Counted from the first letter of the stretch, positions 45,741 to 62,658 are shown. The stretch is DNA of 64,000 bases from an uncultured Pseudomonadales bacterium (GCA_964513845.1 CAZENT010000002.1:75916-139915); one strand, 5' to 3'. The notes: generated by a model not told the origin, from the letters alone. Translations and numbers: made by a program.

Positions 45741-45744
45741 ATAG

Positions 45745-45827
45745 TGCCAAGGACAGGGTTCGAACCTGTGTAGGCTTGCGCCGCGGGTTTTACAGACCCG
45801 AGTATTTGACCACTCTACCACCTTGGC
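45745..45827 (-). tRNA. tRNA-Tyr (GUA), long variable arm
   Basis: Minus-strand cloverleaf: acceptor GCCAAGG/CCUUGGC, anticodon loop CUGUAAA, long variable arm, T-loop GGUUCGAACC. CCA not encoded. Confidence 0.85.
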
Positions 45828-45853
45828 ATACATTTTATTACCTTCGAATTACG

Positions 45854-45927
45854 GAGCCGTTGTTGAGACTCGAACTCAACACCTTTCCCTTACCAAGGGA
45901 ATGCTCTGCCAGATGAGCTACAACGGC
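45854..45927 (-). tRNA. tRNA-Thr (GGU)
   Basis: Acceptor GCCGUUG/CAACGGC, D-arm GCUCAUCUGGCAGAGC, anticodon stem UUCCC/GGGAA with loop UUGGUAA, T-arm GUUGAGUUCGAGUCUCAAC. Confidence 0.85.
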
Positions 45928-45953
45928 TAATTTAGCCAACACCATATTTTACC

Positions 45954-46367
45954 TTATTTCATGCCCATTTTCTTAAGTTCATTCATAATGTACGTTTTTA
46001 GGTGGGTATTAAAGAATCCAACCGTCATCACTCCGTATTTACTTATCTTTTTATATGTTCCTTTTCCCATTGATGGTATTGGATTTGTCGTTTTAATTGT
46101 GCTTGGTTCAATATCCAGCATACCTCCCCAAAATTCCCTAGCAATTACCAAATCATTATCCTTAAACGTTTGTAAATAGAAACACAGCTTTCCTTCCCTT
46201 ATCTGACAGATAATCTTCAAATATCTTACGAATTGTTTTATCACCCCTGGATCCGAGTTTGTTACCCTTATTGCATGGTTTGTTGTTTTATTTCCCTCTC
46301 CCCAATACAAACCCAAAGCAAGATACTTGAGTTTGATCTCGTCTCGTGTCAATCTTTTTTGATACAA
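45954..46367 (-). CDS. LAGLIDADG-family homing endonuclease (single-motif type)
   Basis: KYLALGLYWGEGNKT matches the LAGLIDADG motif including the acidic residue. About 137 aa, I-CreI-like size. Confidence 0.5.
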   Translation of the reverse strand: MYQKRLTRDEIKLKYLALGLYWGEGNKTTNHAIRVTNSDPGVIKQFVRYLKIICQIREGKLCFYLQTFKDNDLVIAREFWGGMLDIEPSTIKTTNPIPSMGKGTYKKISKYGVMTVGFFNTHLKTYIMNELKKMGMK

Positions 46368-46585
46368 AACGGTTCACCGTTAGGGTTTGCCTTAATATAA
46401 TTTGCTTCTGACCTAATTCTTCGAGAAATTCCATACTTATCCATCCAATAGATAATTTTGTGTGTCTTAAGGTCTAAATTTTTTGCTATCTCCGAAAGTG
46501 ATTGTTTCTTTACCAAATACAACTCTCTCAATTCACTCTCTGTGGGAATTCTTGCCATACATTCATTATCCCGAAAAATACCCAA
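46349..46585 (-). CDS. HTH (NUMOD/sigma-r4-like) DNA-binding fragment overlapping the endonuclease ORF by 19 nt in another frame; possibly the frameshifted N-terminus of the same homing endonuclease
   Basis: KKQSLSEIAKNLDLKTHKIIYWMDKYGI helix-turn-helix. The reading frame ends where the LAGLIDADG ORF begins. Confidence 0.4.
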   Translation of the reverse strand: MGIFRDNECMARIPTESELRELYLVKKQSLSEIAKNLDLKTHKIIYWMDKYGISRRIRSEANYIKANPNGEPFCIKKD

Positions 46586-46658
46586 ATGTCAAATCAACAA
46601 ATTCTTACAGACAAGCACTCATATAGAAAATTACCCGCCAAAAGGCGGGTAATTCAAG

Positions 46659-46952
46659 TTACATCAAGTGTAGAAGGTCGATCGCGACAAATCTGTAAAC
46701 CAACACAAAGAGAAAAAAGAAAAAAACGAACATGGTAATACCAATTATAATTCCCTTATTCAATGAAGATTTTACGAAGAAACTCTTGTTTGCAGTCATA
46801 AATGCAAACGTTGACTCTTGCGCAAGATACATTGGTAATAATAAGGAGCCTGCCAATAAAAAGCCAGACAGGGCGGTGAAATCATAAATGCATACCAACA
46901 ATGCTGAAACCAAAAGCAGGAAAAATATATATTTTAAACCTCTATTCGCCAT
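46659..46952 (-). CDS. Small membrane protein (97 aa, 3 TM)
   Basis: ORF track. A minus-strand terminator-like hairpin (acccgcc-tttt-ggcgggt) lies downstream at about 46627-46650. Confidence 0.45.
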   Translation of the reverse strand: MANRGLKYIFFLLLVSALLVCIYDFTALSGFLLAGSLLLPMYLAQESTFAFMTANKSFFVKSSLNKGIIIGITMFVFFFFLFVLVYRFVAIDLLHLM

Positions 46953-47094
46953 TCTAATTATCTCCTTTTTTAAAGTTCATTCAAAATCTTTGACATTTTA
47001 CCCAAAAAAGACCTATATGTCAAATATATAGCATACGAACAGCCTCGTCTACTTAGAATTTTATTACTTTAAATGATAAAATCACAGTTGTATT

Positions 47095-47168
47095 GCCGCC
47101 TTAGCTCAGTTGGTTAGAGCACCAATTTTGTAAATTGGGGGTCCTGAGTTCGAATCTCAGAGGCGGCT
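47095..47168 (+). tRNA. tRNA-Thr (UGU)
   Basis: Acceptor GCCGCCU/AGGCGGC, D-arm GCUCAGUUGGUUAGAGC, anticodon stem CCAAU/AUUGG with loop UUUGUAA, T-arm CUGAGUUCGAAUCUCAG. Confidence 0.85.
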
Positions 47169-47200
47169 CTAAATTAATACTCGCCCTTGTGGTGAGTTTT
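47151..47200 (+). repeat. Direct repeat copy 1: tRNA-Thr 3' end (T-loop to acceptor) plus downstream terminator
   Basis: 50 nt identical to 47299..47348. Confidence 0.9.
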
Positions 47201-48086: not shown

Positions 48087-51000
48087 TTACAAATCTCCGC
48101 TCTTGCTAGCCTCTTCCGTAGGCGTAATTTCTGGTATTGAAGTTGGTGTAGGCACTACAATCGCCGCGGGCGTTGCTTCCGGTATTTCTGGTGTAGTTTC
48201 AGGAGAAATCGATACAACAGGCTCAGGGGTACTTTCAGGAGCCTGTGTTGGTGTTGTGGTTATCACAACTCCCCCGTCCCCCTCAAACACGCTCGTTCCC
48301 GAAACTGCGAGAGCCATCCAGGCAAACCGCAGATCCATTCCAACTCCTCTACTCATGCGAATCATAAATCCTCTGGTATTTACGTCCGCAATCGCATATC
48401 CGGGAACATCCGCGACTGAAGCTCCTCCGGCGATCTGTACTGTAGCCGTCACCACAGGTTCTGTCGCATACTCTCTCGCAAACAAAACCTCCACTTCACT
48501 TCCGCCGGCTTTGATGGTCGCAAATCCAGCTGTGTCTTTATTGAACGTCGGTCGTCCGGCAAAGTTTACATCTCCTCTAAATACCACCTTTCCCAAGAAC
48601 TCCACCATGTTCATAAACACTTCAGCAATCTTGCTTGAAATAATCTCCAGTATATTTGTCTCAGTCAATATTTCCTGCACCTCTCCGGCACTTGTGGCCA
48701 CGCCGGCTACCTGATCCGATAACAAGCTCAGTTTCCTGGTCAAAATATCCACCCCTTCTATTCTATTGGCCTTAATTGTGTCGGCATACAAGATTCCGGA
48801 GAAAGTCGCCTCTCCTTTCACTAGTAAGTTTTCCGTCGTTATTTTTGGCGTAATTATTTCCAGTCCAGCGACCACTCTGTCCGTAAATATTTCCGATATA
48901 TTTGTTGAGTCGGTGTTGATCTGATCTTTTTGCAGAATTATATTTGTCAAAACATCAAAGCTATATGTACCGCTCGTTTGATCAAGACCGCTCATCACTT
49001 CGGCGAGAGTTGCTCCATTACTTCCCCCATTCTTGATGAAGGCCAAAACGGTTCCTGCTTCATCTCCAGAATAATTTGTCATCGCTTGGGCAATTACAGA
49101 ACCAGCCTTACTTGCTTTCATGGCCACTCCAGGTGTAGAAGAGCTTGTCAGCAGATCACCAGCCTTGATATCACCATTTTCTGTGTTTACTTTCACTGGC
49201 ACTCTCCCGGACAATGCCACAGGTATCGCTTTTACTCCCTCACCATTGGAGCCTCCAATCACCATCCCCGGCCAGGTTGACACTACCCCAAACAGGGCTC
49301 GGTCGTATTTTTCCGAACTCTTCTTTACCCCAACAGACAGAAGTGGGTCTAAAGATACTAAGTCACCGGCCTGTAAACTTTCATCACTCGTCGAGTATAT
49401 TTCAGCTAGATCGGCTCCGTTGTCTACCACCATAGCCATAAAAGAATACAGTCTAACATCGGAATCAACCGCACTGGTAATCGAACAAAGTCTGTACGTA
49501 ACAGCGGTTGTTCCAGGATCCACATCAATATCCGCTAATTCAAAGGCACCAATGGTTACTCCATTTGCAGAAGTAATGGCAATAGTATTTGTTTCCAAAA
49601 CTGTCGAATCAGCGCACGTTGTTCCTCCTTTTTCAACAGTAAAAGTAATCGTATGGTTTGTATTATTTCCACTTACTATCTCCATTAGCCCTCGTACATA
49701 GACATCCCCGGTTGTTGTCGAAGGTGTTACCGACAAAGTTGCAATCTGGGTTTCCGCAGTTGTTACATTTGTCAAAGCCTCAGAAGTGTCATATGTAGCA
49801 AAAGCTTGGGCATCTGCTCCATTATCAAGCTGTTCCCAAGTATTCGCCGAAGTACAGGCTTTTACAGTGTTATCTGTGTCATTAAAATATATTTCGCCGG
49901 CATTACACGTCGCCGGATCACCCGTGCTTCCTTTGTCTGATAATCGAAGCGTGGCATAAGTACCCTTGTCTACCACACTTAATAAAGTATTTGTTCCGTC
50001 GGTAAAGGATAAGGTTCCTGTGTTTCCGACAGATATCGTAGGGGTTGTGCTGGTCAGAGATATGTTTCCCGATGTTGTAAGAGTACCTGCAGTACTGAGA
50101 GACCAAGTAGTTCCGCCTGTTAGGGATAGAGTTGTCCCAGAAGTTGCACTTCCAATCGTAATCGCCTTCGCGTTCGCCCCAGTCCCAACGCTTACAGCTC
50201 CGGTCGTTCCAGAATCAAGTGTAACTGTTCCGGTTGTTCCGGTTTTCAAAGATAAATTCCCTGTTGTTCCTGTCATTAATGTAATTCCGCCCGTCCCGGA
50301 ATTGATCGTCACAGATGTTGTTGTATCCGAATTACCCAAAGAAATTGCCTTTGCCGAAGCTCCGGTACCAATATTAAGTGTCATTGCTCCAGTTCCAGTA
50401 AACAAATTGGCTGTCCCTGTTTGCGCCGAGCCGCCCATAGTAAACGTACCTGTTGTCGTTGAACTTCCAAATGAATAAGTCGTTCCCCCGGCTCCATCTA
50501 ATACAACATTCCCTGTTCCGGCATACATATTTAATGCCCCCGTCCCTGTCGCACTGCCAATTGTGATTGTCTTTCCTGTCGCACTGTTGCCGATGTTTAT
50601 TGCCCCTGCACCGGAATCTACCGTCACTGCCTGGGCCAAGGTTGCATTTCCAATAGTCACACCACCCGCTGCGGTTGTGTCGATAATTGGATAGGTTCTG
50701 GCAAACACTCCCAAAGGAGCGGCGGTCGAACTTGATAATGTTCTCGCATTTAAAATATATGATCCAACACCTATCGAAGCTGTCGTTTCTCCAAAAGTAA
50801 AGGCTGTTTTTGCAGCTGTGCTTAGAGCCCAGTTCCATGTTTGGGCATTTTCACCGTTCGCGATACTACTGGCTCCAATTGCTGCCGTAATTCCATCGAG
50901 ACTGGTGCCGCTCGAATTACATGCCCAAGCACTTCCGTTCCATTTTAGAATTTCTCCTGAGTTACATGTTGTCAAAAGTGATAGCCCGCTGTTGTTTACC

Positions 51001-53483
51001 AGTCCTCCATTTGCAGAAAGTTGCACTGCTGATCCAGATACTTTATTCGCAGTCGAAATAGTTGCCAAACTACTGTCAGCAATATTCGAAATAGTATTTA
51101 AACTAGCATCAATTGTTTTATTGGTCAAAGCCTGTGAAGCGTCGGTTAGCACCACTTTTGTTCCTGTGCGCACTCTGGCAATCCCCCCTGTTTGATCAGA
51201 AACAACAAACTCATCAGACGATGTCGATGCTGGACCAAACTGCAACGTTGTCACCGAACCAACAGATGGAGAACCATCAGACTCGGTTATTGTTACTGAT
51301 CCGCCACCTGTACTGTCTGCTTGGCAAGTCCAGCCAGACACGGCCGTCCACTTCAATACCCGATTATCACTACAAGTACGGATTAAAGATAATCCTGTAC
51401 CATCAGAAAGCAAACCGCCATCTGTATACACCGAAGGGGTTCCACCCGTACTGTCTGCAGCGCAAGCCCAGGCACTGCCATTCCATTTCAAAATTTGATT
51501 TGAAGAACAAGAAGTCAGTAAGGTTAATCCTGAGCTGTTACTAATTCCTCCATTAGCATTTAATTGCACAGCCGACCCGGATACTTTATTAGCTGTTGTA
51601 ATCGTAGCCAGATTTGCATCCGTTATTCCGGCCGTTCCTGATAAATTTGAGTTTGTTAGTCCTGTGATGGTATTGCTCCCGGCATCAAGCGTTTTTCCAC
51701 TCAAAGTCTGACTTTGGTTTTTAAATACAAACTCATCAGAAGCCGTTAAGGCCGGAATCGTTGCCACCCTGCTGGCACTTGGAGCTGTAGAGGTAATTGT
51801 TGTGGTATTCGTTGTTCCCAGAACGAGTTGATTATTTACTCTGGTCAGCGTCAGAGAATTAAATGTGGGCGCTGCTGTCGAATCAATGTTTTGTACCGTG
51901 TTAACCGCTCCGGAAACAACACTGAAGTTTGTCGAGTTAAAACTCGCTGCTCCTTTTACCGTCGTCGAGGCATCCGCCATACCGATCGTCACTGTTCCCC
52001 CCAAAGATACTGGTGACCCAGATATTGATACTCCACTTCCAGCTGACACATAAATACTACTATTTGACAACTGAGCATTGGTAATTCCCGCAGACGCCGA
52101 CAAGGCGCTAGATGTCAAACCGGAAATGGCCGTACTCGTTACTCCACTCACCCTACCATTTGCATCCGTTGTTAAAACTGGAATATCGGTTGATGAACCG
52201 TATGTTCCCGCAGTACCCAAAGCAGGCAACACTCCGGCAATATCTATCGAAGTTCCTGAAGCAGTCACCGTATTAAATCCCGAACCCGTAATCGACAAAG
52301 CTCCTGTTAGAGAGTTTAAACTCGAAAGTCCCGTCCCAACTCCGCCGACCGATTTACACTCCCAAGAATCACTGTCCCAAGCCAATACCTGATCTACAGA
52401 GCAGGTGGTCAACAAAGTTAGTCCTGATCCATGTGTCAAACCTCCGCCGGATTTTAGTTCTACCGCCGTTCCAGCCACCTTTCCGGAAGATGTAATCGTG
52501 GCCAACTTCCCATCAGAAATTGATGCGCTTCCAGATATGTCAGCGTCAGCAATTGTTCCGTCGGCAATTTTCGCCCCTGTCAAAGCAGAATCAACAATTT
52601 TTGCTGTTGTTACTGATAAATCGGACAGTTTAGTTGTTGTCACCGCACTATCACCAATTTTTAAATTAGTAATCGAACCATTTACTATCTGTGCATCTCC
52701 GACTACTCCGCTATTGATAATGGCTAAGCCGGTAATCGGATCGATTGTCACAGCTCCCGAAATTGGCGTTGGTGTTGGCACCGGAATTACTCCAGGTAAA
52801 GACAGAGCTTGTTTTTCCTGAACTTGACTCAACCATTTCACCGCCTCTTTTCCAATAATGGCGCTTGCTGTATCAACTTCACGTAAAGACGGACTTATCT
52901 GAATATTTTTAAATTGTCCCCGAGTATCAAAAGTACCCAATATCCGAGAATTATCTTTCAAACTCCACAACTCGGTATCACCCACCAACCTTCCCCCGCT
53001 TACCCTTCCATTAATTATTTTTACAGGAAAAGTAGAACCGTCCGACAAAGTAATCCCCGTTACTCCATGGAAAACAACCTGGTCTGTTTCTACCACTCGG
53101 TTATTGCTGTCATATAGATCTATCATTCCATTTACCTCTTGAGTCAATTTTGCCTCACCGTTTTGGTAAACCAGTTCGGAATACCCCAATGCTTTATCAT
53201 TTTCGATTGTAGAGTTTTGAATTTGAACAAAGGCATACTCGCCTCCTGCTCGGGCAATCACCAGATAAACCTTGTTCCCTAAGTTGCTTTTTGCTAACTC
53301 TTCTGTTGTTATCTCAGACACAACCTGGACAACGGTCGGTTTTTGGACGTCTTTTGACACTATCTTACCTCCACTTAATGCAAATATCACTCCTCCGGCA
53401 ACCATAGCGATAAAAAACATCAAAACCAGACGAACCACTCGGTCGTATTTTCTGCCCGTGATTAGTAATATCTCTTCTCCCAT
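48087..53483 (-). CDS. Giant (1798 aa) membrane-anchored surface protein with Thr/Ser/Gly-rich beta-rich regions and recurring Cys-pair modules
   Basis: N-terminal TM (VRLVLMFFIAMVAGGVIFALSGG). At least four repeats of LLTxCSxxQILKWNGSAWAC..DSTGG. Long T/S/G/N-rich stretches. C-terminal Pro/Thr-rich tail (TPTQAPESTPEPVV...). Confidence 0.8.
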   Translation of the reverse strand: MGEEILLITGRKYDRVVRLVLMFFIAMVAGGVIFALSGGKIVSKDVQKPTVVQVVSEITTEELAKSNLGNKVYLVIARAGGEYAFVQIQNSTIENDKALGYSELVYQNGEAKLTQEVNGMIDLYDSNNRVVETDQVVFHGVTGITLSDGSTFPVKIINGRVSGGRLVGDTELWSLKDNSRILGTFDTRGQFKNIQISPSLREVDTASAIIGKEAVKWLSQVQEKQALSLPGVIPVPTPTPISGAVTIDPITGLAIINSGVVGDAQIVNGSITNLKIGDSAVTTTKLSDLSVTTAKIVDSALTGAKIADGTIADADISGSASISDGKLATITSSGKVAGTAVELKSGGGLTHGSGLTLLTTCSVDQVLAWDSDSWECKSVGGVGTGLSSLNSLTGALSITGSGFNTVTASGTSIDIAGVLPALGTAGTYGSSTDIPVLTTDANGRVSGVTSTAISGLTSSALSASAGITNAQLSNSSIYVSAGSGVSISGSPVSLGGTVTIGMADASTTVKGAASFNSTNFSVVSGAVNTVQNIDSTAAPTFNSLTLTRVNNQLVLGTTNTTTITSTAPSASRVATIPALTASDEFVFKNQSQTLSGKTLDAGSNTITGLTNSNLSGTAGITDANLATITTANKVSGSAVQLNANGGISNSSGLTLLTSCSSNQILKWNGSAWACAADSTGGTPSVYTDGGLLSDGTGLSLIRTCSDNRVLKWTAVSGWTCQADSTGGGSVTITESDGSPSVGSVTTLQFGPASTSSDEFVVSDQTGGIARVRTGTKVVLTDASQALTNKTIDASLNTISNIADSSLATISTANKVSGSAVQLSANGGLVNNSGLSLLTTCNSGEILKWNGSAWACNSSGTSLDGITAAIGASSIANGENAQTWNWALSTAAKTAFTFGETTASIGVGSYILNARTLSSSTAAPLGVFARTYPIIDTTAAGGVTIGNATLAQAVTVDSGAGAINIGNSATGKTITIGSATGTGALNMYAGTGNVVLDGAGGTTYSFGSSTTTGTFTMGGSAQTGTANLFTGTGAMTLNIGTGASAKAISLGNSDTTTSVTINSGTGGITLMTGTTGNLSLKTGTTGTVTLDSGTTGAVSVGTGANAKAITIGSATSGTTLSLTGGTTWSLSTAGTLTTSGNISLTSTTPTISVGNTGTLSFTDGTNTLLSVVDKGTYATLRLSDKGSTGDPATCNAGEIYFNDTDNTVKACTSANTWEQLDNGADAQAFATYDTSEALTNVTTAETQIATLSVTPSTTTGDVYVRGLMEIVSGNNTNHTITFTVEKGGTTCADSTVLETNTIAITSANGVTIGAFELADIDVDPGTTAVTYRLCSITSAVDSDVRLYSFMAMVVDNGADLAEIYSTSDESLQAGDLVSLDPLLSVGVKKSSEKYDRALFGVVSTWPGMVIGGSNGEGVKAIPVALSGRVPVKVNTENGDIKAGDLLTSSSTPGVAMKASKAGSVIAQAMTNYSGDEAGTVLAFIKNGGSNGATLAEVMSGLDQTSGTYSFDVLTNIILQKDQINTDSTNISEIFTDRVVAGLEIITPKITTENLLVKGEATFSGILYADTIKANRIEGVDILTRKLSLLSDQVAGVATSAGEVQEILTETNILEIISSKIAEVFMNMVEFLGKVVFRGDVNFAGRPTFNKDTAGFATIKAGGSEVEVLFAREYATEPVVTATVQIAGGASVADVPGYAIADVNTRGFMIRMSRGVGMDLRFAWMALAVSGTSVFEGDGGVVITTTPTQAPESTPEPVVSISPETTPEIPEATPAAIVVPTPTSIPEITPTEEASKSGDL

Positions 53484-53591
53484 TTCAATTAATTTTTTTC
53501 TGGCCTTGTGTTTTTAATATAAATATAGGAAATCAAAACAATCACTCCCACGATTAATAACAAATAAAACATCCAAGCAAGCCAAGAATAA

Positions 53592-55052
53592 CTAACATCC
53601 AGAGCTTTTTGAAACAGTAGTAAAAAAGTTGTTCGATGAAAAATCTGAACCGCTAAATATACTTGAGGAGGGGTAGTTCGCCAACGAAACGCCCTCAGTA
53701 TCAATAATTCCTGCGATAGCCACGTCAGTTTTTCCTAATGATAAAAATTTCAACTGGTTAGTCAACTCCTCTGTTCTCCCTTTCGCTAGCGCATCCACAA
53801 AACTCGCGTTTGTCGCCAAATAATTAGCTCCTTTTTCCAAATCAGTTAAAGTATTTGCAATTTGTACTTTTGCCAAATCTGCTTTATCTACCAGCACTCG
53901 GTTTGTATTACTTACCAGAACTCCCTGTATCATCGCAATGAAAATAATAAACATTCCAAAAGACATAAGGATTGCTCCAAACAATTTAAAAACTAAAGGA
54001 CGATCTGTTATCGCTTTTGCTTTAAACGCCTGCCAGTACGGCAGCATTAATCCAATTAATCCAGCAATTAAAAACGAAAAGGATCTGGTCCAGAAATTTC
54101 TTGCTCCATACAACAGTGCTAGAACACACAATAAAAATCCATAAACAAACAAAACACTATTTAGAAATTTCTTGTTTGCAATAAAGCTATAAAGACCAGC
54201 TGCCAACAATATAATCAGTAATAGACTTACGATCCAGACGTTACTGCCAAAAAACGGCCTCAGGTCGGTTGATAACAAAGACAGGCTTGAGTTATCAGGA
54301 ATAAAGTTTAAAACAACAAATACACTAATTAGTAATCCAAATATATACATCATGTACAGTATCGCCGAGTCTATATTGCTTGACGCCTCAATTAAAATAA
54401 TCAAGCCAAACAGACCGTGAATCAAAAATCCATCCGTCTCTCCCCCGAGCAGTAATATCACCGAAAGACCTAAAAAGGTCATACCTAAAAAGTATCTGAA
54501 ATAGTTTGTAAAATTTGAAAAACGTCCAATCTCTCCCTGAATCATTGAGGACAATATCAACCCAAAACCTCCAAAAATCATTCCCAAGCGAACCGGATTT
54601 AACCACAACGACAAACTTCCAACAGAAAGTACATCCAGCTGACCTGAGTACAAAAACAACGACACTCCAATAATAATTGAGCTCAAACTCGTTAACCAAT
54701 CAAAAAGTTTGGGCAGTCCAACTCGTTCTTCAAACCACAGTTTTAATGTGTGAATCACGGGCTCTCCCCCAAGATCGGCCAAGCTCATTCCCGGCCTAGG
54801 CGCTGGCAAAAGCACACTTTGCGGTATCGTATCGGCTGTGTTGCTTTTTTGCTCTGGTTCTTTTCTTGGTTTGAGTTTAGAAGTGTTTTTATTAGGCTCA
54901 GTAAATTTTGCAATTTCCTTTTCTGGGATACGAAATTTCCCGTTTCCAATTCTTTCCGCCTTTATCAAACCTTCTTTTAGAAAACCATAAATACTATTAC
55001 TCGAATATCCAAGCATCTTTGCAACTTCACTTACGGAGTAGTTCTTATTCAT
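53592..55052 (-). CDS. HTH (MerR/excisionase-type)-polytopic membrane-periplasmic domain protein
   Basis: N-terminal YSVSEVAKMLGYSSNSIYGFLKEGLIKAERIGNGKFRIP helix-turn-helix, about 10 TM helices, C-terminal soluble domain. Confidence 0.55.
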   Translation of the reverse strand: MNKNYSVSEVAKMLGYSSNSIYGFLKEGLIKAERIGNGKFRIPEKEIAKFTEPNKNTSKLKPRKEPEQKSNTADTIPQSVLLPAPRPGMSLADLGGEPVIHTLKLWFEERVGLPKLFDWLTSLSSIIIGVSLFLYSGQLDVLSVGSLSLWLNPVRLGMIFGGFGLILSSMIQGEIGRFSNFTNYFRYFLGMTFLGLSVILLLGGETDGFLIHGLFGLIILIEASSNIDSAILYMMYIFGLLISVFVVLNFIPDNSSLSLLSTDLRPFFGSNVWIVSLLLIILLAAGLYSFIANKKFLNSVLFVYGFLLCVLALLYGARNFWTRSFSFLIAGLIGLMLPYWQAFKAKAITDRPLVFKLFGAILMSFGMFIIFIAMIQGVLVSNTNRVLVDKADLAKVQIANTLTDLEKGANYLATNASFVDALAKGRTEELTNQLKFLSLGKTDVAIAGIIDTEGVSLANYPSSSIFSGSDFSSNNFFTTVSKSSGC

Positions 55053-56059: not shown

Positions 56060-56284
56060 AAATATATAAATATGTAACAATAATTACAAGTCACTACAAT
56101 TACTCTATAGCAAATATGAGGCTCTGTCAAATCGACTTTTACACTCAAAACAGTCAATATATTTATTGAATATTTCTGTCAACCCTCTCTCAGTCCCTAC
56201 ACCACCTCAACTCGCCGGATTGCGTATGCCACCCATGGGTGTTAAAATACCTCTTGCTTCTAATAAACATATAGACACTAAAAC

Positions 56285-56458
56285 ATGGCAAAAAAAGGAC
56301 CAAGACAAAGTATGGGTTTAAAATGCTCCAAATGCGGGCATTTCAACTACATCACCGAACGCAACAAGACCAACACCCCCGAGAAACTTGTCATCAGTAA
56401 GCACTGCCGTACCTGTCGTGTGCATACCGACCACAAGGAAGTCTCAAAACTTAAGTAA
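56285..56458 (+). CDS. rpmG: 50S ribosomal protein L33 (zinc-ribbon form); 57 aa, missing from the ORF track
   Basis: MAKKGPRQSMGLKCSKCGHFNYITERNKTNTPEKLVISKHCRTCRVHTDHKEVSKLK. C4 ribbon and the characteristic TEKN..T.EKL segment of L33. Confidence 0.8.
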   Translation: MAKKGPRQSMGLKCSKCGHFNYITERNKTNTPEKLVISKHCRTCRVHTDHKEVSKLK

Positions 56459-56472
56459 TAAGGTAATTACTT

Positions 56473-56494
56473 CCAGTCCTCGGTACTCACGGGG
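56473..56494 (+). repeat. 22-nt motif CAGTCCTCGGTACTCACGGGGA, copy A, at the 5' end of a ~110-nt hairpin-rich segment ending in a T-run
   Basis: Exact match to 61908..61929. Followed by an 11-bp interrupted stem (GGUACUCACGGG/CCCUGAGUACC), an outer AGUCCU/AGGACU stem, and UUUAUUUUUU. Confidence 0.9.
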
Positions 56495-56819
56495 ACAAAG
56501 AGGTTTCCAAATTGAAATAAACAGTACTTCAACCCTGAGTACCCGGAAGGACTTAGGTGGTATTTATTTTTTATTCCCGAAACAAAAAGATCGTAGCCAT
56601 ATACCTTTTCAAAAATATTACGCACATGCGCGAAAGCACGGCTTTTTTCTTGAAAAGAAAAAATTTCGCGCCTGCAGTACAAAGACGGCTCCAACGCAGG
56701 TGGAGAACGTCTGGTTTTTGCAAAAGGTGTAAGGCGGCAGATCTTGTTGAGGTAGATAACAAATATGCGATGACCAACAAAGAATATTGACGACAAACCG
56801 TATAAAGATAAAACGATTT

Positions 56820-58019
56820 TTAAATCTCCACCATCCCCAACACTTCCGGAATTCTCACACTTTTAGGTACAACTACAAACATAAGCCGCCTTTCAAAAAT
56901 ATACTTTTTGCTGCCATCAGGAAGATTATCGGTTCTGTCATCCCACCAACGATTCAAAAATTCATCCATCTCAAAATAACGATCATGTTCGGCATAGTGG
57001 CCATATGGATCCATCATGCGGATTTTATTACTCCCCCTATCCACATCAACCACCACACAGTAATGCCCATCGTCTCCGCGACATGCCGAGTCTTCTATGG
57101 CCACAGTTTCCTCGACATTTGTAATTCCTGTTTCATAATCACTACTTTCAAATATCCCCTGCCAATCAATTCCGACTGGATAGTTGTATTGACGCACCAT
57201 CCTTTCCAGATCATCAAGTGTTCCGTCTCGCTTTACCCACAGGCTCATCTCCGGATACAAAGTGTTAACTGCTTTTGCCAAAAGTTCTACCGACATTCCG
57301 TTTTCAATTACGTGTTTTCGGCTCGCCCCGGCCTCCACTATACTTTCTTGATCTGCTTGAATTCCAAAATGTGACAACAATATCTGAAGCACCGAAGGAC
57401 CACAATAGGAGCCATTCAACTGGCGCACTCTACCCAATTTTATGTCGCTTACCAAAACATCCTCTTTCGGTTCTTCAACGTCCGGTACACTTAGATCTCT
57501 CGCCCACAAACCATTACTTTCTTCATCAAAATCTCTTATCTTCACAAATCCTGATTTTTCGATTACCTTTATCGATGGCACATTTTCTTTTTCAATCTCC
57601 GCCAAAATTTTTAACTCTGGAGTGACAAACCAGGGTTTTTTCTCGCACAAATACTCAAAAACATATTTGCACACAATCTCAATCGCCGGCACGATGAGTC
57701 CCGAAGGCGCATCAAACCCTTTGGCATAACTTATTTCAAGGCAGTTTTCCAAGATTTTTGACGGATAGATATACACGAACCCTCTAACCCGTTCATCGGC
57801 AATGGCAAATAAAAAGCTCATTCTCTCACCTTTTTCGTCCATCCAGCTTCTGTAGTTACTGAAACTCAGATCAGTCACGTTTTCCATCCATCTTTGCACT
57901 GGAGGGCTTTCCACAATCGTCACTAAATCCTTCAAGTCATGGCTGTTGTCACAGTCAAAGAAACGCACCGCAAACCGATGCCCATCTTTTATGAAATACT
58001 GATTCTCGATATCTACCAT
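56820..58019 (-). CDS. GNAT acetyltransferase-like N-domain fused to a C39/papain-like cysteine peptidase (BtrH-like) C-domain
   Basis: The N-domain is paralogous to 59265..59951 (AVRFFD...DEKG...GFVYIY, ...PSIKVIEKSGFVKI). The C-domain has NGSYCGPSVLQILLSHFG (Q/C motif) and downstream DGHYCVVVDVD (His, Asp). Confidence 0.6.
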   Translation of the reverse strand: MVDIENQYFIKDGHRFAVRFFDCDNSHDLKDLVTIVESPPVQRWMENVTDLSFSNYRSWMDEKGERMSFLFAIADERVRGFVYIYPSKILENCLEISYAKGFDAPSGLIVPAIEIVCKYVFEYLCEKKPWFVTPELKILAEIEKENVPSIKVIEKSGFVKIRDFDEESNGLWARDLSVPDVEEPKEDVLVSDIKLGRVRQLNGSYCGPSVLQILLSHFGIQADQESIVEAGASRKHVIENGMSVELLAKAVNTLYPEMSLWVKRDGTLDDLERMVRQYNYPVGIDWQGIFESSDYETGITNVEETVAIEDSACRGDDGHYCVVVDVDRGSNKIRMMDPYGHYAEHDRYFEMDEFLNRWWDDRTDNLPDGSKKYIFERRLMFVVVPKSVRIPEVLGMVEI

Positions 58020-58049
58020 GCCCCTATTTTACCAATCATTTGCCAAATC

Positions 58050-59192
58050 TTATTTCCTGGCGTATTTTGAGAGCAAACTAGCCAGTACTTCATCAAAACT
58101 CACACCGTGCATCGCCAAAACTTCGGTCATTGGCAGTCCCATGTCTGGACCAAAAGCGGTATTGGGGTTTGAATCGGTGAAATAAGGAATGTTTGTCTCT
58201 TGGTCTACACGCACGTCAAACTTAGCGTAGTCCTTGTGCTGCAGCCCTCGAAAGGCACGAATTGCCAGTTGTGAGATCTTACTGGCCAAAGGTTCCTCAA
58301 CGTGCTTGTAGGTATAGGCTCTTATGTCTTCATAAGACTCAATACTGGTAAAATAGTGCTTCCCATCAGCCTTTTTTCTAAACACTTTTTGCCCCATATA
58401 CACGTTTTTCTTGGAACCATCATCAAAAACCACGACCGTTACTTCCGGACCATCAATAAACTGCTCCACAATCACCGGGATTTTGTAAGTCTGAATCATT
58501 TTATTCACCTTCTTCTGAGCCTCTACAATCGTCTCCTTGACCGCGTGGTTATCTATTCCCACACTTCCACCGCTTTCATTGAGCTTGACGATTAATGGCA
58601 GGCCCAACTCTGTTTCGACTTTTGTCTTGGCTCGACGAATAAACTGAAAGGCGGGAGTTGGAATACCGTAAGCCATGAGAAGCCTTTTGGTTAGGTTTCG
58701 ATTGTTTCCAATTACCATACCTTCCATCCCTGCGCCGGTATATGGCAAATTGGACAGCTCCAAAGCCGCCGGTACAGATGTTTGTAAACGATCTTTGCCC
58801 TTTAAGGTGTCCACCAAATTCAAAACCAAAGAAGGTTGATCCACAAGCAGGTTTGTCAAAAAATACGGGTCACCAGGTAAGGTCTTCGCCTTAATTCCCA
58901 TTTTTTCAATTCTCTCAGCCACTTCCTTAGCTCTATCTTCCACTTCAACCTCCGCATAATACGATTCTTCTGTCGGGAACATATTTCTTTCTACGTGTGA
59001 ATAGGCCACCACTACCAAACTCAATTTCTTTAAGGCATTCTTATCAATGCGCAATTTTGTTTTCTTATGCGCTTTCGGTGTTACGGACTCTTCGCTTTCT
59101 TGAGCAACAACTTCGCTTTCCTGAGATGCTTTCACTTCTATGTGTTCATCTTTTTTTGTAATCCCCAAAAAATCTTTTATTCCCATATGCAT
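58050..59192 (-). CDS. D-Ala-D-Ala-ligase-like ATP-grasp enzyme with ~60-aa acidic N-terminal extension
   Basis: GLPLIVKLNESGGSVGI, IPVIVEQFIDGPEVTVVVF and KFDVRVDQETNIPYFTDSNPNTAFG align with Ddl ATP-grasp motifs. It lacks the canonical N-terminal GGxSxEHEVS. Confidence 0.7.
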   Translation of the reverse strand: MHMGIKDFLGITKKDEHIEVKASQESEVVAQESEESVTPKAHKKTKLRIDKNALKKLSLVVVAYSHVERNMFPTEESYYAEVEVEDRAKEVAERIEKMGIKAKTLPGDPYFLTNLLVDQPSLVLNLVDTLKGKDRLQTSVPAALELSNLPYTGAGMEGMVIGNNRNLTKRLLMAYGIPTPAFQFIRRAKTKVETELGLPLIVKLNESGGSVGIDNHAVKETIVEAQKKVNKMIQTYKIPVIVEQFIDGPEVTVVVFDDGSKKNVYMGQKVFRKKADGKHYFTSIESYEDIRAYTYKHVEEPLASKISQLAIRAFRGLQHKDYAKFDVRVDQETNIPYFTDSNPNTAFGPDMGLPMTEVLAMHGVSFDEVLASLLSKYARK

Positions 59193-59264
59193 TCAGCTTA
59201 ACATTTACTCACCAGTAAAATCAACATCATAAATATTTAAAATATAAATCAAAGAAACAGAATA

Positions 59265-59951
59265 TTATAATTGTCCTTCCTTCTTCATCTTCATTATCTC
59301 CATCAACTTCTTGTGGTTTAAAACATACAAAGCACTCATCTCTGCAGAATCTTCTTCATAAAAATGTCTCCCCAGTCTTTCAAAACCACACGCTTCCACT
59401 ACCCGCATCGAACCCGTATTTGTTTCATCGATAAAACAAAAAATAAACACTCCGGTTCCTTCTTTAATCTTATCCAATCTGTGAACCTCCAAACAAGCCT
59501 GCCTCACCGCACTACTTATCTGTCCACCGGGAGCTTCGGGTAATTTAGCAAAGCTAATTTCAAATATTTTATTGTTATTTACCAAATTTGATTTTATTAT
59601 CTTTGCCCTCACCATTCTTTCAATGATCTTTCGCTCTTCAGCTCCGGCATAAAGATAAACAAAACCTTGCACCTGGCCAACCTCTTCCACTTCTTCTCCA
59701 AATATCTCTTTTGTTCCCGACACTGCAAATAAATAGTATCTTCCGTACGCCCCTTTTTCGTCAGCCCACTCAAACAAATCTTTTCTGGTCATATTTGCCA
59801 CGCTATCCATTCTTTCTTGTACTTCGCGGTGTTGCACTATTTTTCGGAGGCGAATCATATCTTCTTTGTTCCCAGAATCAAAAAAACGCACCGCGGCTTT
59901 CTCACCCTGATATCTTTTCAGTTTTAATTCATTTTTTTTCATATTCTTCAC
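59265..59951 (-). CDS. Stand-alone GNAT-fold protein paralogous to the N-domain of 56820..58019
   Basis: AAVRFFDSGNKEDMIRLRKIVQHREVQERM...DEKGAYGRYYLFAV...VQGFVYLY and C-terminal SMRVVEACGFERLG GNAT beta-strand. Confidence 0.55.
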   Translation of the reverse strand: MKNMKKNELKLKRYQGEKAAVRFFDSGNKEDMIRLRKIVQHREVQERMDSVANMTRKDLFEWADEKGAYGRYYLFAVSGTKEIFGEEVEEVGQVQGFVYLYAGAEERKIIERMVRAKIIKSNLVNNNKIFEISFAKLPEAPGGQISSAVRQACLEVHRLDKIKEGTGVFIFCFIDETNTGSMRVVEACGFERLGRHFYEEDSAEMSALYVLNHKKLMEIMKMKKEGQL

Positions 59952-60074
59952 TTTAGAATATCCCCTTTATTGCCGATAATCAATTCCTAGGAGTGGGTTT
60001 TTCTAAGCCTGTACCCTTTTGTGCTAGTTTGATATAATATACCCAGCTTGAACCTTAAATTTTCAGGAGGAAAA

Positions 60075-60593
60075 ATGTCTCAAGGATATGATGTAGTTTA
60101 TGAATACACGAAACATGTTGGAGGCTATGCTGGTGTTCGCTTCGTAATACCATATAGCAACAAAACCAATTTCAATAGAATTAACTCTATTCCCAATCGT
60201 CGAACGAACATTATCGCTCAAGGTGTTTCCGAAGAGCAGGCTTTAAACTTATGTGCCCTGACTCCGGAAATTTGCCAGCTCACCGCCATCATCGATGAAA
60301 TCTGCCACTCTCAAGACGGCCGTATAAATCAAAAATTGATTGTTCCCAATCTCGCTCAGGTCATCTCTACGATTGAGGAATATCGAGAGCGTCGCCAGGA
60401 ATATGATCTTCGCCCTACCCCCGGCTTTTCCTTTGTCGATATCGAAGCCCAAGAACCTTCTGAGAAGAAATCAATGTATCAATACATCAAGAATCGATTC
60501 TACCGGCCAGACGGCAATCTACCCGCAGATCTTCAAATGGTCAAGAAGATGATGACCATTGACTTGAACAAGATCGTTCTCTTCCGCATCTAA
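60075..60593 (+). CDS. Hypothetical protein (172 aa)
   Basis: ORF track. Start refined to MSQGYDV. Confidence 0.4.
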   Translation: MSQGYDVVYEYTKHVGGYAGVRFVIPYSNKTNFNRINSIPNRRTNIIAQGVSEEQALNLCALTPEICQLTAIIDEICHSQDGRINQKLIVPNLAQVISTIEEYRERRQEYDLRPTPGFSFVDIEAQEPSEKKSMYQYIKNRFYRPDGNLPADLQMVKKMMTIDLNKIVLFRI

Positions 60594-60679
60594 TAGAACA
60601 ACCAACCCCAAACCCTCCTTAATCGGAGGGTTTTTTACGCCCACAAGCTTCATTTTCTGCTAAAATACGGAGTAGCCAT

Positions 60680-60750
60680 AGGGGTGTAGTGAAGTGGTAT
60701 CACTACTGTCTCCAAAACAGTCATCCCAGGTTCGAGCCCTGGCACCCCTG
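60680..60750 (+). tRNA. tRNA-Trp (CCA)
   Basis: Acceptor AGGGGUG/CACCCCU, D-arm GUGAAGUGGUAUCAC, anticodon stem ACUGU/ACAGU with loop CUCCAAA, T-arm CCAGGUUCGAGCCCUGG. Overall very similar to E. coli tRNA-Trp. Confidence 0.85.
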
Positions 60751-61047
60751 CAAAATATGTCCTTCCTTTATGGGAGGACATTTTTGTACTCTTTCTACTC
60801 CCCTTCCATCTCAGCAATCTGATCCTCAATACTTCTTATCTGGCTCTGACATCCCAGGCAATCAGAACAGCCTTTGATTATGGATAAAAGGCTTTTTAGT
60901 GACTCCAGAGTCATCTCTGGCAGAAAATACTGTTCCATATCAATTTTGTCTTCACATTCTCTTTGCATTACAAAAGCATAGCAGAACCATAAATGAATTT
61001 GATATATAATGCCCCCAACGCACTCTCAAATTCTAAAAGGAGAAAAA

Positions 61048-61656
61048 ATGAACAAGTCGCCACGCTCTCCGAGAAAAAAAGTTCCCAAGCTCACACAGAT
61101 TCACAGACCAAACCTTTGCTACTATGTTCAGTCTGCCTTTGCTTCGCTTGGAGTCTACTTCATTGATCCTTCGACGCACGAATATGTAAATGGCTTACTC
61201 AACACCTCTGCTCTCTATCTCACTCTCATTCCTCCCCCAGTAAAGCGCAAGAAACACCCTCTTGGCTTTATTCCGCGCCCCACAGAAGAAAAAAGCGCCT
61301 GTCCTGATTGCATGCAGGCCGAAGCCTCTCTCTTTTTTTCCTACACAGGAGATGATTTGTTTTCTGGTGTAGATGAAGAAACCGGAGTAACGCACTTAAT
61401 CATTCAGGTCTGGCATGACGATGAAGTTGAAAAATGGGAAAAAATTGCTCAAAAAGCGGCAAGAAAACTGGGTCACTTTGAAGAAGACAAATTCGTTGCC
61501 CCGGTCTTTTTCACCCTCACCAGCACCTTTGTTCCATTCGACCCCAACGCTCCCCATCACATAATTCTTAGTCCCCCAGACTCAGACGATACATACGCCG
61601 TGTCCGACACGGTCATTCCTCAATCGGAAGATGAATTCGATGACGAGGATGAATAG
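61048..61656 (+). CDS. Hypothetical protein with acidic C-terminus (about 202 aa from MNKSPRSP)
   Basis: ORF track. No domain recognised. Confidence 0.4.
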   Translation: MNKSPRSPRKKVPKLTQIHRPNLCYYVQSAFASLGVYFIDPSTHEYVNGLLNTSALYLTLIPPPVKRKKHPLGFIPRPTEEKSACPDCMQAEASLFFSYTGDDLFSGVDEETGVTHLIIQVWHDDEVEKWEKIAQKAARKLGHFEEDKFVAPVFFTLTSTFVPFDPNAPHHIILSPPDSDDTYAVSDTVIPQSEDEFDDEDE

Positions 61657-61706
61657 CAGGACACGACATATCCTGCTTTCGTATTTGTTGTTCTGAATTT
61701 CTCCCT

Positions 61707-61736
61707 CAAACCCGCCATATATGGCGGGTTTTTTGT
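61707..61736 (+). terminator. Intrinsic terminator
   Basis: aaacccgcc-atatat-ggcgggttt hairpin followed by tttt. Confidence 0.75.
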
Positions 61737-61907
61737 GAAATATAGCCCCAATATTGAAAATTTTCTTTTTCTCACAAACACAAGTCCGTAGTCTATTCCC
61801 TTTTCGGCAGGATTACGCAAAGCGACAATACTCAGACAATGAAAATATATTGTATTCGCAATGCATATCCGATACAAAAAATATCGCGCAAAGCACAAGT
61901 GTACTCA

Positions 61908-61929
61908 CAGTCCTCGGTACTCACGGGGA
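61908..61929 (+). repeat. 22-nt motif CAGTCCTCGGTACTCACGGGGA, copy B, followed ~50 nt later by an intrinsic terminator (ggacggctttc...gaaagagcgtcc + TTTTTT)
   Basis: Exact match to copy A. Preceded by an extra GTACTCAC half-repeat. No plus-strand gene downstream before tsaC on the minus strand. Confidence 0.9.
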
Positions 61930-62052
61930 AAATTGCCTGGATTCTAGGTACTCCTAGAAAATTTTGCTGATAGAAAGGACGGCTTTCACGCAGGCGAAAG
62001 AGCGTCCGGTTTTTTGTATGGATATGCATGAGAGAATATAGGAAAAATATTT

Positions 62053-62658
62053 TCAAACCACCACCCTTACTTCCCCCTCCCTCAACACCCTAACTTCACT
62101 CCCCGTTGTGTCCACAATTGTCGATGGTTGCCTCAAAGGCAGCTCACCCGCATCAATAAACAAATCAATCAATTTTTGTTTGTCTTCAGGCACGGTGGCC
62201 AAAAACTCCGACAAACTTCTGGCTGTAGGCGCCCCGGAAATATTGGCTGAGGTTGAAGTAATTGGTTTTCCAAATGCCTTGATGATGTTTAGCACCTCCT
62301 TAATATCCGGATTTCGCAAACCAAGATTTTGAGTTTTTCCTTGCGCTTTTTTTCCAACCAAATTTTTGCTCACGGCTATCACAGCCACGGCCCCAGGCCA
62401 ATATTTTTGCACCACTTTTTTACCCGTTTCGTTAAAATCAACATATTTCTCCGCCATCTCAACTCCATCGACGGCTACCAATACCGGCTTATCTCCCCGT
62501 TCCCCCTTGAACTCCCACAACCTTTCCAAGGCCGTATCAGAAGTTGCATCTACACCTAGTCCGTAAACAGTTTCTGTCGGATAAACCATCAATCCTCCAC
62601 GAACCAAGACATCAACTACCTCCGCGATACTCAATTCAGCCAGTTTTACTATCTTCAT
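62053..62658 (-). CDS. tsaC: L-threonylcarbamoyladenylate synthase (TsaC/YrdC family; tRNA t6A37 synthesis)
   Basis: YPTETVYGLG motif and YrdC fold length (201 aa). Confidence 0.85.
   Translation of the reverse strand: MKIVKLAELSIAEVVDVLVRGGLMVYPTETVYGLGVDATSDTALERLWEFKGERGDKPVLVAVDGVEMAEKYVDFNETGKKVVQKYWPGAVAVIAVSKNLVGKKAQGKTQNLGLRNPDIKEVLNIIKAFGKPITSTSANISGAPTARSLSEFLATVPEDKQKLIDLFIDAGELPLRQPSTIVDTTGSEVRVLREGEVRVVV

Follow-up and report, generated by a model that had tools for sequence, protein, structure and literature searches.

This analysis concerns three adjacent minus-strand genes in a 64,000-nucleotide (nt) stretch of DNA recorded as an uncultured Pseudomonadales bacterium (GCA_964513845.1, CAZENT010000002.1:75916-139915), which is called the window throughout. 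The genes encode a GNAT domain fused to a C39-like cysteine peptidase, an ATP-grasp ligase of the D-Ala–D-Ala ligase (Ddl) clade, and a stand-alone GNAT. An annotation made from the DNA alone (the sequence-only reading) had proposed these three genes, and the open reading frames (ORFs) were confirmed with the following layout:

56820..58019, minus: GNAT–C39-like fusion gene (ORF, 399 amino acids, aa)
57495..58001, minus: GNAT domain of the fusion protein (Acetyltransf_3, RimJ/RimL-like), residues ~7-175
56823..57434, minus: residues ~196-399 of the fusion protein, C39-like cysteine peptidase domain (Gln200, Cys206, His319 and Asp337)
58050..59192, minus: divergent Ddl-clade ATP-grasp ligase ('A-type'; ORF, 380 aa)
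59265..59951, minus: stand-alone GNAT paralogue, first gene of the operon (ORF, 228 aa)

The gaps between the genes measure 30 nt and 72 nt. The nearest relatives of all three proteins were found in assemblies of Candidatus Collierbacteria and other Microgenomates, members of the candidate phyla radiation (CPR). By inspection, no signal peptide or membrane segment is apparent in the three sequences, and the proteins are taken to be cytoplasmic. The PADLOC defence models gave no meaningful match. The comparison set comprised 83 loci, 80 of them evaluable, in genomes of Collier-, Woese-, Shapiro-, Gottesman- and Cerribacteria.

The ligase is matched by the Pfam family Dala_Dala_lig_C (E 2.4e-20), and the best 50 Foldseek matches are all Ddl or Van ligases, with E values down to 8.6e-18. 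A profile search against the PDB returned Ddl, PurD and L-amino-acid ligases only, and the close solved relatives are D-Ala–D-Ala and Van ligases only. Judged by its sequence, however, the protein does not qualify as a bona fide Ddl, since it falls short in hidden Markov model (HMM) scores, N-terminal motif and substrate residues. It reached 103.2 bits with NCBIfam PRK01372 (cut-off 243 bits) and 95.1 bits with TIGR01205 (cut-off 245.65 bits). No match to Dala_Dala_lig_N (PF01820) was found at E<=0.01, and the N-terminal Ddl motif GGxSxE(h)xVS is absent; the family reads VAYSHVER...AE(V/I)EVE at this place. Residues were compared in a MAFFT alignment of 21 family members with E. coli DdlB. The ligase family keeps E15 and the Mg/ATP residues, but other DdlB positions are altered (H63->D, S150->G, R255->K, S281->L and L282->P). 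K215/Y216 are gapped, and the omega-loop differs, with an uncertain alignment of this loop. Residues 1 to ~45 form a disordered Glu/Lys-rich extension, with a predicted local distance difference test (pLDDT) below 50 over residues 1-41. The divergent Ddl-type enzyme with an acidic N-terminus that had been proposed was thus recovered. The true start is probably the second Met (MGIKD..., 59186), as in the homologues. The idea that the extension serves as a double-glycine leader for the peptidase was ruled out, since the MGIKDLLG motif is absent from many lineages that keep ligase and peptidase together.

The ligase is common and highly conserved, with 65-87% identity over at least 100 clusters across Microgenomates. 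Between Collierbacteria and other Microgenomates its median identity was 71%, compared with 59% for NusG, 54% for L11, 51% for L33, 39% for L1 and 34.5% for the C39-like peptidase. Because it evolves more slowly than L11 or NusG, the ligase must serve something central.

In the fusion protein, Pfam detected Acetyltransf_3 at residues 26-159 above the cut-off (E 6.5e-9). Residues 199-339 gave a match to Peptidase_C39_2 (E 4e-4, 21.4 bits against a cut-off of 24 bits), and the score with Peptidase_C39 was 18.5 (cut-off 22). Other members of the peptidase family pass the Pfam cut-offs, among them P0197 (33.2 and 31.3) and the neighbour of the ligase in locus L090. The AlphaFold model of the fusion protein (pLDDT 82.5) contains two well-folded domains, with a disordered stretch (residues 179-193) as linker; within the peptidase domain, before the catalytic His, an acidic insert (residues 293-315) is also disordered. 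The C-terminal domain has a papain/C39-type fold. Its top fold matches are the double-glycine leader peptidases PCAT1, ComA and LahT, and a match to Alr0975 was weak. Gln, Cys, His and Asp occur in this order in the 68 peptidases compared (Q200 in 67/68, C206 in 68/68, H319 in 67/68 and D337 in 65/68). From these residues, the peptidase appears to carry a complete cysteine-protease catalytic set. The same 68 members also share the conserved motifs WQGxF, RWWD and, at the C-terminus, LGM. The GNAT–C39-like fusion had therefore been recognized correctly. Neither BtrH_N (PF14399) nor PF11814 was matched in the fusion protein by Pfam.

The GNAT–C39 architecture is rare, with 32 clusters among 5.8 billion proteins, and 26 full-length homologues share it. 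A profile search of 1.84 billion representatives yielded 151 relatives of the peptidase at E<=1e-10. Among them are independent fusions in both orders, GNAT–C39 (P0178, P0188, P0292) and C39–GNAT (P0171, P0191, P0235), and one ATP-grasp–C39 fusion (P0197). Since such fusions arose independently elsewhere, they support a functional coupling of the enzymes.

Linkage of the genes was evident from the comparison set. A stand-alone C39-like gene lies directly downstream of the ATP-grasp gene on the same strand in 68 of the 80 evaluable loci; in L090 the two called genes overlap by 20 nt. The pair is kept even in unrelated neighbourhoods, and no other conserved gene or short ORF was found around it in the 80 loci. 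In particular, there was no precursor-like conserved ORF within 700 nt of the pair, nor one of at least 35 aa within 5 kb, and no ABC transporter was conserved within 5 kb of the pair in the 80 loci. The neighbourhoods examined contained no mur genes and no carrier protein. The core of the system is thus a lineage-wide two-gene unit, an ATP-grasp ligase gene followed by a gene for a cytoplasmic peptidase, and this two-enzyme module is kept by most Microgenomates. A literature search found no paper that treats ATP-grasp together with Peptidase_C39_2, and a CPR protein-family paper makes no mention of the ligase–peptidase module. Microgenomates are a large uncultured group with reduced genomes, and many of their enriched protein families have no assigned function.

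The stand-alone GNAT gave a weak match to Acetyltransf_3 (E 1.5e-3). As had been suggested, it is a paralogue of the fused GNAT domain (31% identity, E 2e-19). The fused domain has the GNAT fold and belongs to the Acetyltransf_3 (RimJ/RimL-like) family. A putative acyl-CoA-binding loop reads (R/K)PxAPxGL across the family. The top match is a protein acetyltransferase; spermidine and aminoglycoside acetyltransferases and a lasso-peptide acetyltransferase (9iy3) are also among the fold matches. The module GNAT is confined to 17 loci, all from Collierbacteria apart from one Cerribacteria locus, and lies upstream of the ATP-grasp gene in L004 and L010-L015. The GNAT is an addition to the module in Collierbacteria/Cerribacteria that was later duplicated, one copy being fused to the peptidase. 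The sequence-only reading had described a ligation and processing triad. Its genes are indeed linked in many genomes, not dispersed, and are even fused in some, but they do not form a sporadic secondary-metabolite triad; the unit is the lineage-wide two-gene core, with a GNAT added later.

The setting of the pair is also conserved, with two neighbours that are present in the window:

56285..56458, plus: rpmG (ribosomal protein L33), conserved neighbour of the module (translation; PF00471 on the L001 homologue)
60680..60751, plus: tRNA-Trp, conserved neighbour (ancestral rpmG–tRNA-Trp–secE–nusG cluster)

The tRNA-Trp gene had been noted before and was confirmed. In many lineages the pair sits between rpmG and tRNA-Trp/secE-nusG-rplK-rplA, and in 28 of 53 loci the L33 gene follows no more than 7 kb downstream. 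The order in the window (rpmG; peptidase, ligase and GNAT on the opposite strand; tRNA-Trp) matches that of the Collierbacteria loci L001, L016, L019, L024, L026 and L028. A Sua5 gene, a 215-aa ORF and a 181-aa ORF are neighbours common to the relatives too. Because the gene order is common to relatives, the segment is ancestral and was not inserted.

Taken as a whole, the locus is best explained as an operon that lies on the chromosome of a Collierbacteria-like Microgenomates member and was inherited vertically. It would encode a module for the ATP-dependent ligation of peptides or amino acids, equipped with its own peptidase for trimming or processing and with an N-acyltransferase. We give this reading a probability of about 0.45. 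From the observed folds, catalytic residues, linkage, fusions and extreme conservation we infer the chemistry and the substrate side as follows. The ligase would activate a carboxylate as an acyl-phosphate and then couple it to an amino group. The bond formed would be of the peptide or isopeptide type, and the substrate a peptide, a protein or possibly a small molecule. The peptidase may remove or trim what the ligase has added, or expose a terminus that the ligase requires, and the GNAT could acylate a free amine of the substrate or the product. A peptide or protein substrate is favoured, although not strongly, because the peptidase folds are peptide-processing, the top GNAT match is a protein acetyltransferase and the ligase is constrained beyond ribosomal proteins. 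A more specific form can be proposed only tentatively. Here the module would be a hitherto unrecognised, Microgenomates-wide post-translational ligation and de-ligation system that attaches an amino acid or a peptide as a tag to an essential conserved protein and takes it off again. This protein might belong to the translation apparatus encoded next to the module, and the Collierbacteria GNAT would cap the tag. If such a tagging cycle on proteins or peptides were true, it would be a new bacterial post-translational system.

A precedent for a ligase with a dedicated protease is the RimK–RimB pair (with RimA), which acts in the glutamylation of ribosomal protein S6 in Pseudomonas (PMC7343187, PMC11957791). 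Like the module, RimK/RimB combine an ATP-grasp ligase with a dedicated, co-transcribed protease; RimK and RimB share a target, and in both systems the genes are set among translation genes. The module GNAT is RimJ/RimL-like, and GNATs of the RimJ/RimL type also modify ribosomal proteins. Unlike RimK, which has a known protein target with an acidic C-terminus, the module ligase gave no match to the RimK-clade family PF08443. RimB is a retropepsin-like aspartic protease, whereas the module peptidase is a C39 cysteine peptidase. The module is thus not a member of the RimK system and has its working logic alone in common with it. Glutathionylspermidine synthetase/amidase is a second analogue in working logic. 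Fusions of a C39-like domain (DUF3335/PF11814) with a GNAT have been noted previously in predicted ATP-grasp amidoligase systems (PMC10318531, citing Iyer et al. 2009). They resemble the module in the fusion of a C39-like peptidase to a GNAT and in the association with an ATP-grasp enzyme. They differ in that the module peptidase has no PF11814 match and its partner ligase belongs to the Ddl clade. Overall, the module lies outside the RimK, BtrH and graspetide families and does not pass the defining tests of Ddl; it lies inside the C39-like peptidase fold group and the GNAT superfamily. We conclude that it is an uncharacterised variant of the ligase plus peptidase (plus GNAT) theme, which is lineage-wide, unusually conserved and not mobile.

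Several observations weigh against a ligation module with a dedicated peptidase. No peptidase gene lies next door to the ligase in 12 of the 80 loci, and the P0197 fusion comes from one 2.2-kb contig, in which a scaffold gap lies immediately upstream of it. The predicted ligase structure reached no more than moderate confidence (pLDDT 63), and for this reason no active-site conclusions were taken from it. The closest solved structures and HMMs of the ligase are all D-Ala–D-Ala ligases, and the E15 equivalent is kept. No other, canonical Ddl was demonstrated in Collierbacteria by a search with a second paralogue ('B') as query, the hits of which bore too few organism names. This B paralogue, a more Ddl-like ATP-grasp enzyme, directly follows the ligase–peptidase pair in 10 loci, which hints at a link to peptidoglycan:

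L037 9587-10642, L042, L062, L066, L073, L075, L081, L083, L086, L087: B paralogue behind the pair

Compared with the A-type ligase, the B paralogue stands closer to Ddl, with 180-190 bits on the Ddl model and a PDB match at E 7e-25, and has retained S150, K215, R255 and S281 of DdlB. It is 60-83% conserved within Microgenomates, and its NCBI name is merely 'ATP-grasp domain-containing protein'. No copy of it was found within the window.

These points bear on the first alternative, in which the ATP-grasp enzyme acts in Microgenomates cell-wall synthesis as a D-Ala–D-Ala-type ligase, be it the housekeeping one or an alternative. The peptidase would then be an accessory enzyme that works on peptides or dipeptides of the cell wall, following a VanA/VanX-like logic or one of muropeptide salvage. 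Because no separate canonical Ddl was demonstrated in Collierbacteria, a cell-wall role of the ligase keeps some probability, but we regard it as rather unlikely. Ddl/VanA are the closest fold and sequence family of the module ligase, and the logic of ligase plus peptidase resembles VanA/VanX; VanX, however, is a zinc dipeptidase, unlike the C39 cysteine peptidase of the module. A cell-wall enzyme would agree with the Ddl and Van ligases as best structural and HMM matches, with the retained E15 equivalent and Mg/ATP residues, with the B paralogue right after the pair and with the near-universal presence of the ligase in Microgenomates, the published genomes of which are described with complete peptidoglycan pathways (PMC7143001). 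It fits poorly with Ddl model scores under half of the cut-offs, the missing Dala_Dala_lig_N match, altered D-Ala-binding residues and an unaligned omega-loop Lys-Tyr. Conservation far above that of ribosomal proteins is atypical for Ddl, the obligate pairing or fusion with a cytoplasmic C39 peptidase and a GNAT has no known Ddl precedent, and mur genes are absent from the neighbourhoods examined. The earlier judgement that the enzyme is probably not the housekeeping ddl hence stands with regard to the N-terminal motif and the HMM cut-offs, with the reservation that the cell-wall role retains a small share of the probability. If the ligase were the real cell-wall dipeptide ligase of the group, this would change how Ddl is recognized in CPR genomes and how 'vancomycin-ligase-like' matches are read. 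Whether it is a cell-wall ligase or part of a tagging cycle, direct experimental handles are available in the gene pairing, the fusions and the catalytic residues.

With a similarly low probability, the pair could make and break a small-molecule amide (a dipeptide, thiol-peptide or polyamine conjugate), the GNAT acetylating a free amine. One model for this is the E. coli glutathionylspermidine synthetase/amidase (GspSA), which unites an ATP-grasp-type synthetase and a papain-like (CHAP) cysteine amidase, the latter hydrolysing the bond that the former has made; another is glutathione synthetase together with phytochelatin-synthase-like enzymes. Ddl-clade ATP-grasps usually use small substrates, the fold matches of the GNAT include spermidine and aminoglycoside acetyltransferases, and P0197 puts both activities in one chain, as does GspSA. 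The two systems differ in the clade of the ligase, the family of the peptidase (CHAP in GspSA, C39 in the module) and the order of the domains, and GspSA has no GNAT. The match to Alr0975 is weak, and the stronger fold matches are peptide-processing C39 domains. Further, the extreme conservation of the ligase is uncommon in small-molecule enzymes, and no metabolic partner genes are conserved nearby.

A tailoring cluster for a natural product or a ribosomally synthesized and post-translationally modified peptide (RiPP), either microviridin/graspetide-like (ATP-grasp, GNAT and C39 leader peptidase) or similar to BtrJ/BtrH of butirosin, is improbable. Microviridin clusters hold the same three enzyme classes, and in both types of system ATP-grasp, GNAT and C39/papain-like transferase classes co-occur. 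The double-glycine leader peptidases as top folds of the peptidase and the lasso-peptide acetyltransferase (9iy3) among the GNAT matches would also be in line with such a cluster. Unlike these systems, the module has no precursor peptide, transporter, carrier protein or other tailoring gene in the distances given above, no BtrH_N match, and an ATP-grasp enzyme that groups with Ddl and not with RimK or graspetide ligases. In contrast to PCAT1, ComA and LahT, the module peptidase is neither fused to nor located beside an ABC transporter, and it has the acidic disordered insert, the WQGxF and RWWD core and the LGM C-terminus. RiPP clusters are patchy, whereas the module is single-copy, lineage-wide, syntenic and ultra-conserved. 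The BtrH-like designation of the peptidase domain and the analogy to BtrJ/BtrH therefore could not be upheld; with no BtrH_N, carrier protein or biosynthetic neighbours the analogy is a loose one.

The sequence-only reading had further proposed a possible mobile island bracketed by an exact 22-nt direct repeat. The repeat CAGTCCTCGGTACTCACGGGGA is present in two exact copies at 56474-56495 and 61908-61929, the first starting at 56474 and not, as had been stated, at 56473. None of 100 shuffles gave such a repeat, and the similarity between the copies reaches 31 nt at 90%:

56474..56495, plus: repeat copy 1, hairpin (GUCCUCG-GUACUCA-CGGGGAC) 16 nt past the rpmG stop
61908..61929, plus: repeat copy 2, orphan truncated unit; its convergent spacer is flanked by the 215-aa ORF and the Sua5/YrdC gene

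The 22-mer forms a hairpin with a stem of 7 bp and the loop GUACUCA (-11.9 kcal/mol, z -3.7). After copy 1, up to 56520, the DNA reads GAC AAA GAG GTT TCC AAA TTG AAA TAA (DKEVSKLK-stop), which duplicates the last eight codons of rpmG with synonymous differences only. This unit (window 56459-56525), a hairpin with a GUACUC(A/G) loop plus the repeated rpmG end, also follows rpmG in L094 3881-4010, L076, L015, L093 and L095, either singly or as two tandem units. The exact 22-mer is located at the same place in four other metagenome contigs (L093/L096, L094, L095), although the rpmG DNA of these is only 77-80% identical to that of the window. In L015 and L076 the stems differ but still pair through compensatory changes. 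An origin of the duplicated rpmG end by read-through or frameshift was ruled out, since its frame relative to rpmG differs between genomes. Copy 2 is absent from the equivalent place in relatives and was found in this genome only. Thus, the 22-mer is not an island boundary but a hairpin within a relic copy of the rpmG 3' end; the unit might represent the relic of an attachment site or, alternatively, a structured 3' element. An integrated island of 5.4 kb with the repeats as attL/attR is largely refuted by synteny: the repeat is exact and non-random, and a relic gene end with synonymous-only changes is the pattern left by elements that integrate into gene 3' ends, but flanking repeats are the only island feature present, no integrase or mobility gene was found between them (ORFs, Pfam), neither the 22-mer nor the ligase matched the viral contigs scanned, and ATP-grasp/C39, rpmG, tRNA-Trp, Sua5 and hypothetical genes adjoin in many relatives that lack copy 2. 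The proposed comparison with the flanks gave no island signal either: GC content is uniform over the window (~0.38-0.48), and the 56.4-62 kb stretch does not stand out in GC or skew.

A stretch of ~270 nt (61735-62010, plus) lies between terminator-like hairpins at 61704-61734 and ~61975-62010. It holds repeat copy 2 and a second hairpin with a GGTACTC loop (61942-61959), has no Rfam match and might correspond to a small transcript. Over the whole window, and with a permissive threshold over 56200-62100, Rfam detected tRNAs only, without a match at either repeat region.

Some further features of the region were noted. The 181-aa hypothetical protein (60048-60593, plus) is kept near the module in Collierbacteria (L004 11008-12296, L011, L015); some relatives have two tandem copies of its gene, and its placement relative to the operon varies between genomes. 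A cluster of tRNA-Tyr, tRNA-Thr(GGT) and tRNA-Thr(TGT) (window 45744-47169) is kept near rpmG (L001 13934-14845, L015 8896-9242), and in L001 an IS200/IS605-type Y1 transposase gene lies near it. An 1808-aa ORF without assigned function (48090-53513, minus) adjoins the gene of an HTH_17–dCache protein (53592-55052, minus); the adjacency of a dCache protein and a protein of more than 1700 aa is also present in L004 and L001. The GC skew is negative in almost every 1-kb window of 1-64000, and the cumulative skew falls steadily, in agreement with the published disparity of G and C between the strands in Collierbacteria and their relatives (PMC7143001). Finally, this clearly Microgenomates locus was found in many public metagenome-assembled genome (MAG) records titled Spirochaetia, uncultured Pseudomonadales/Gammaproteobacteria or Chloroflexia (L015, DATIKJ010000042.1; L012, L014, L022, L063 and others), and these taxonomic labels are probably wrong.

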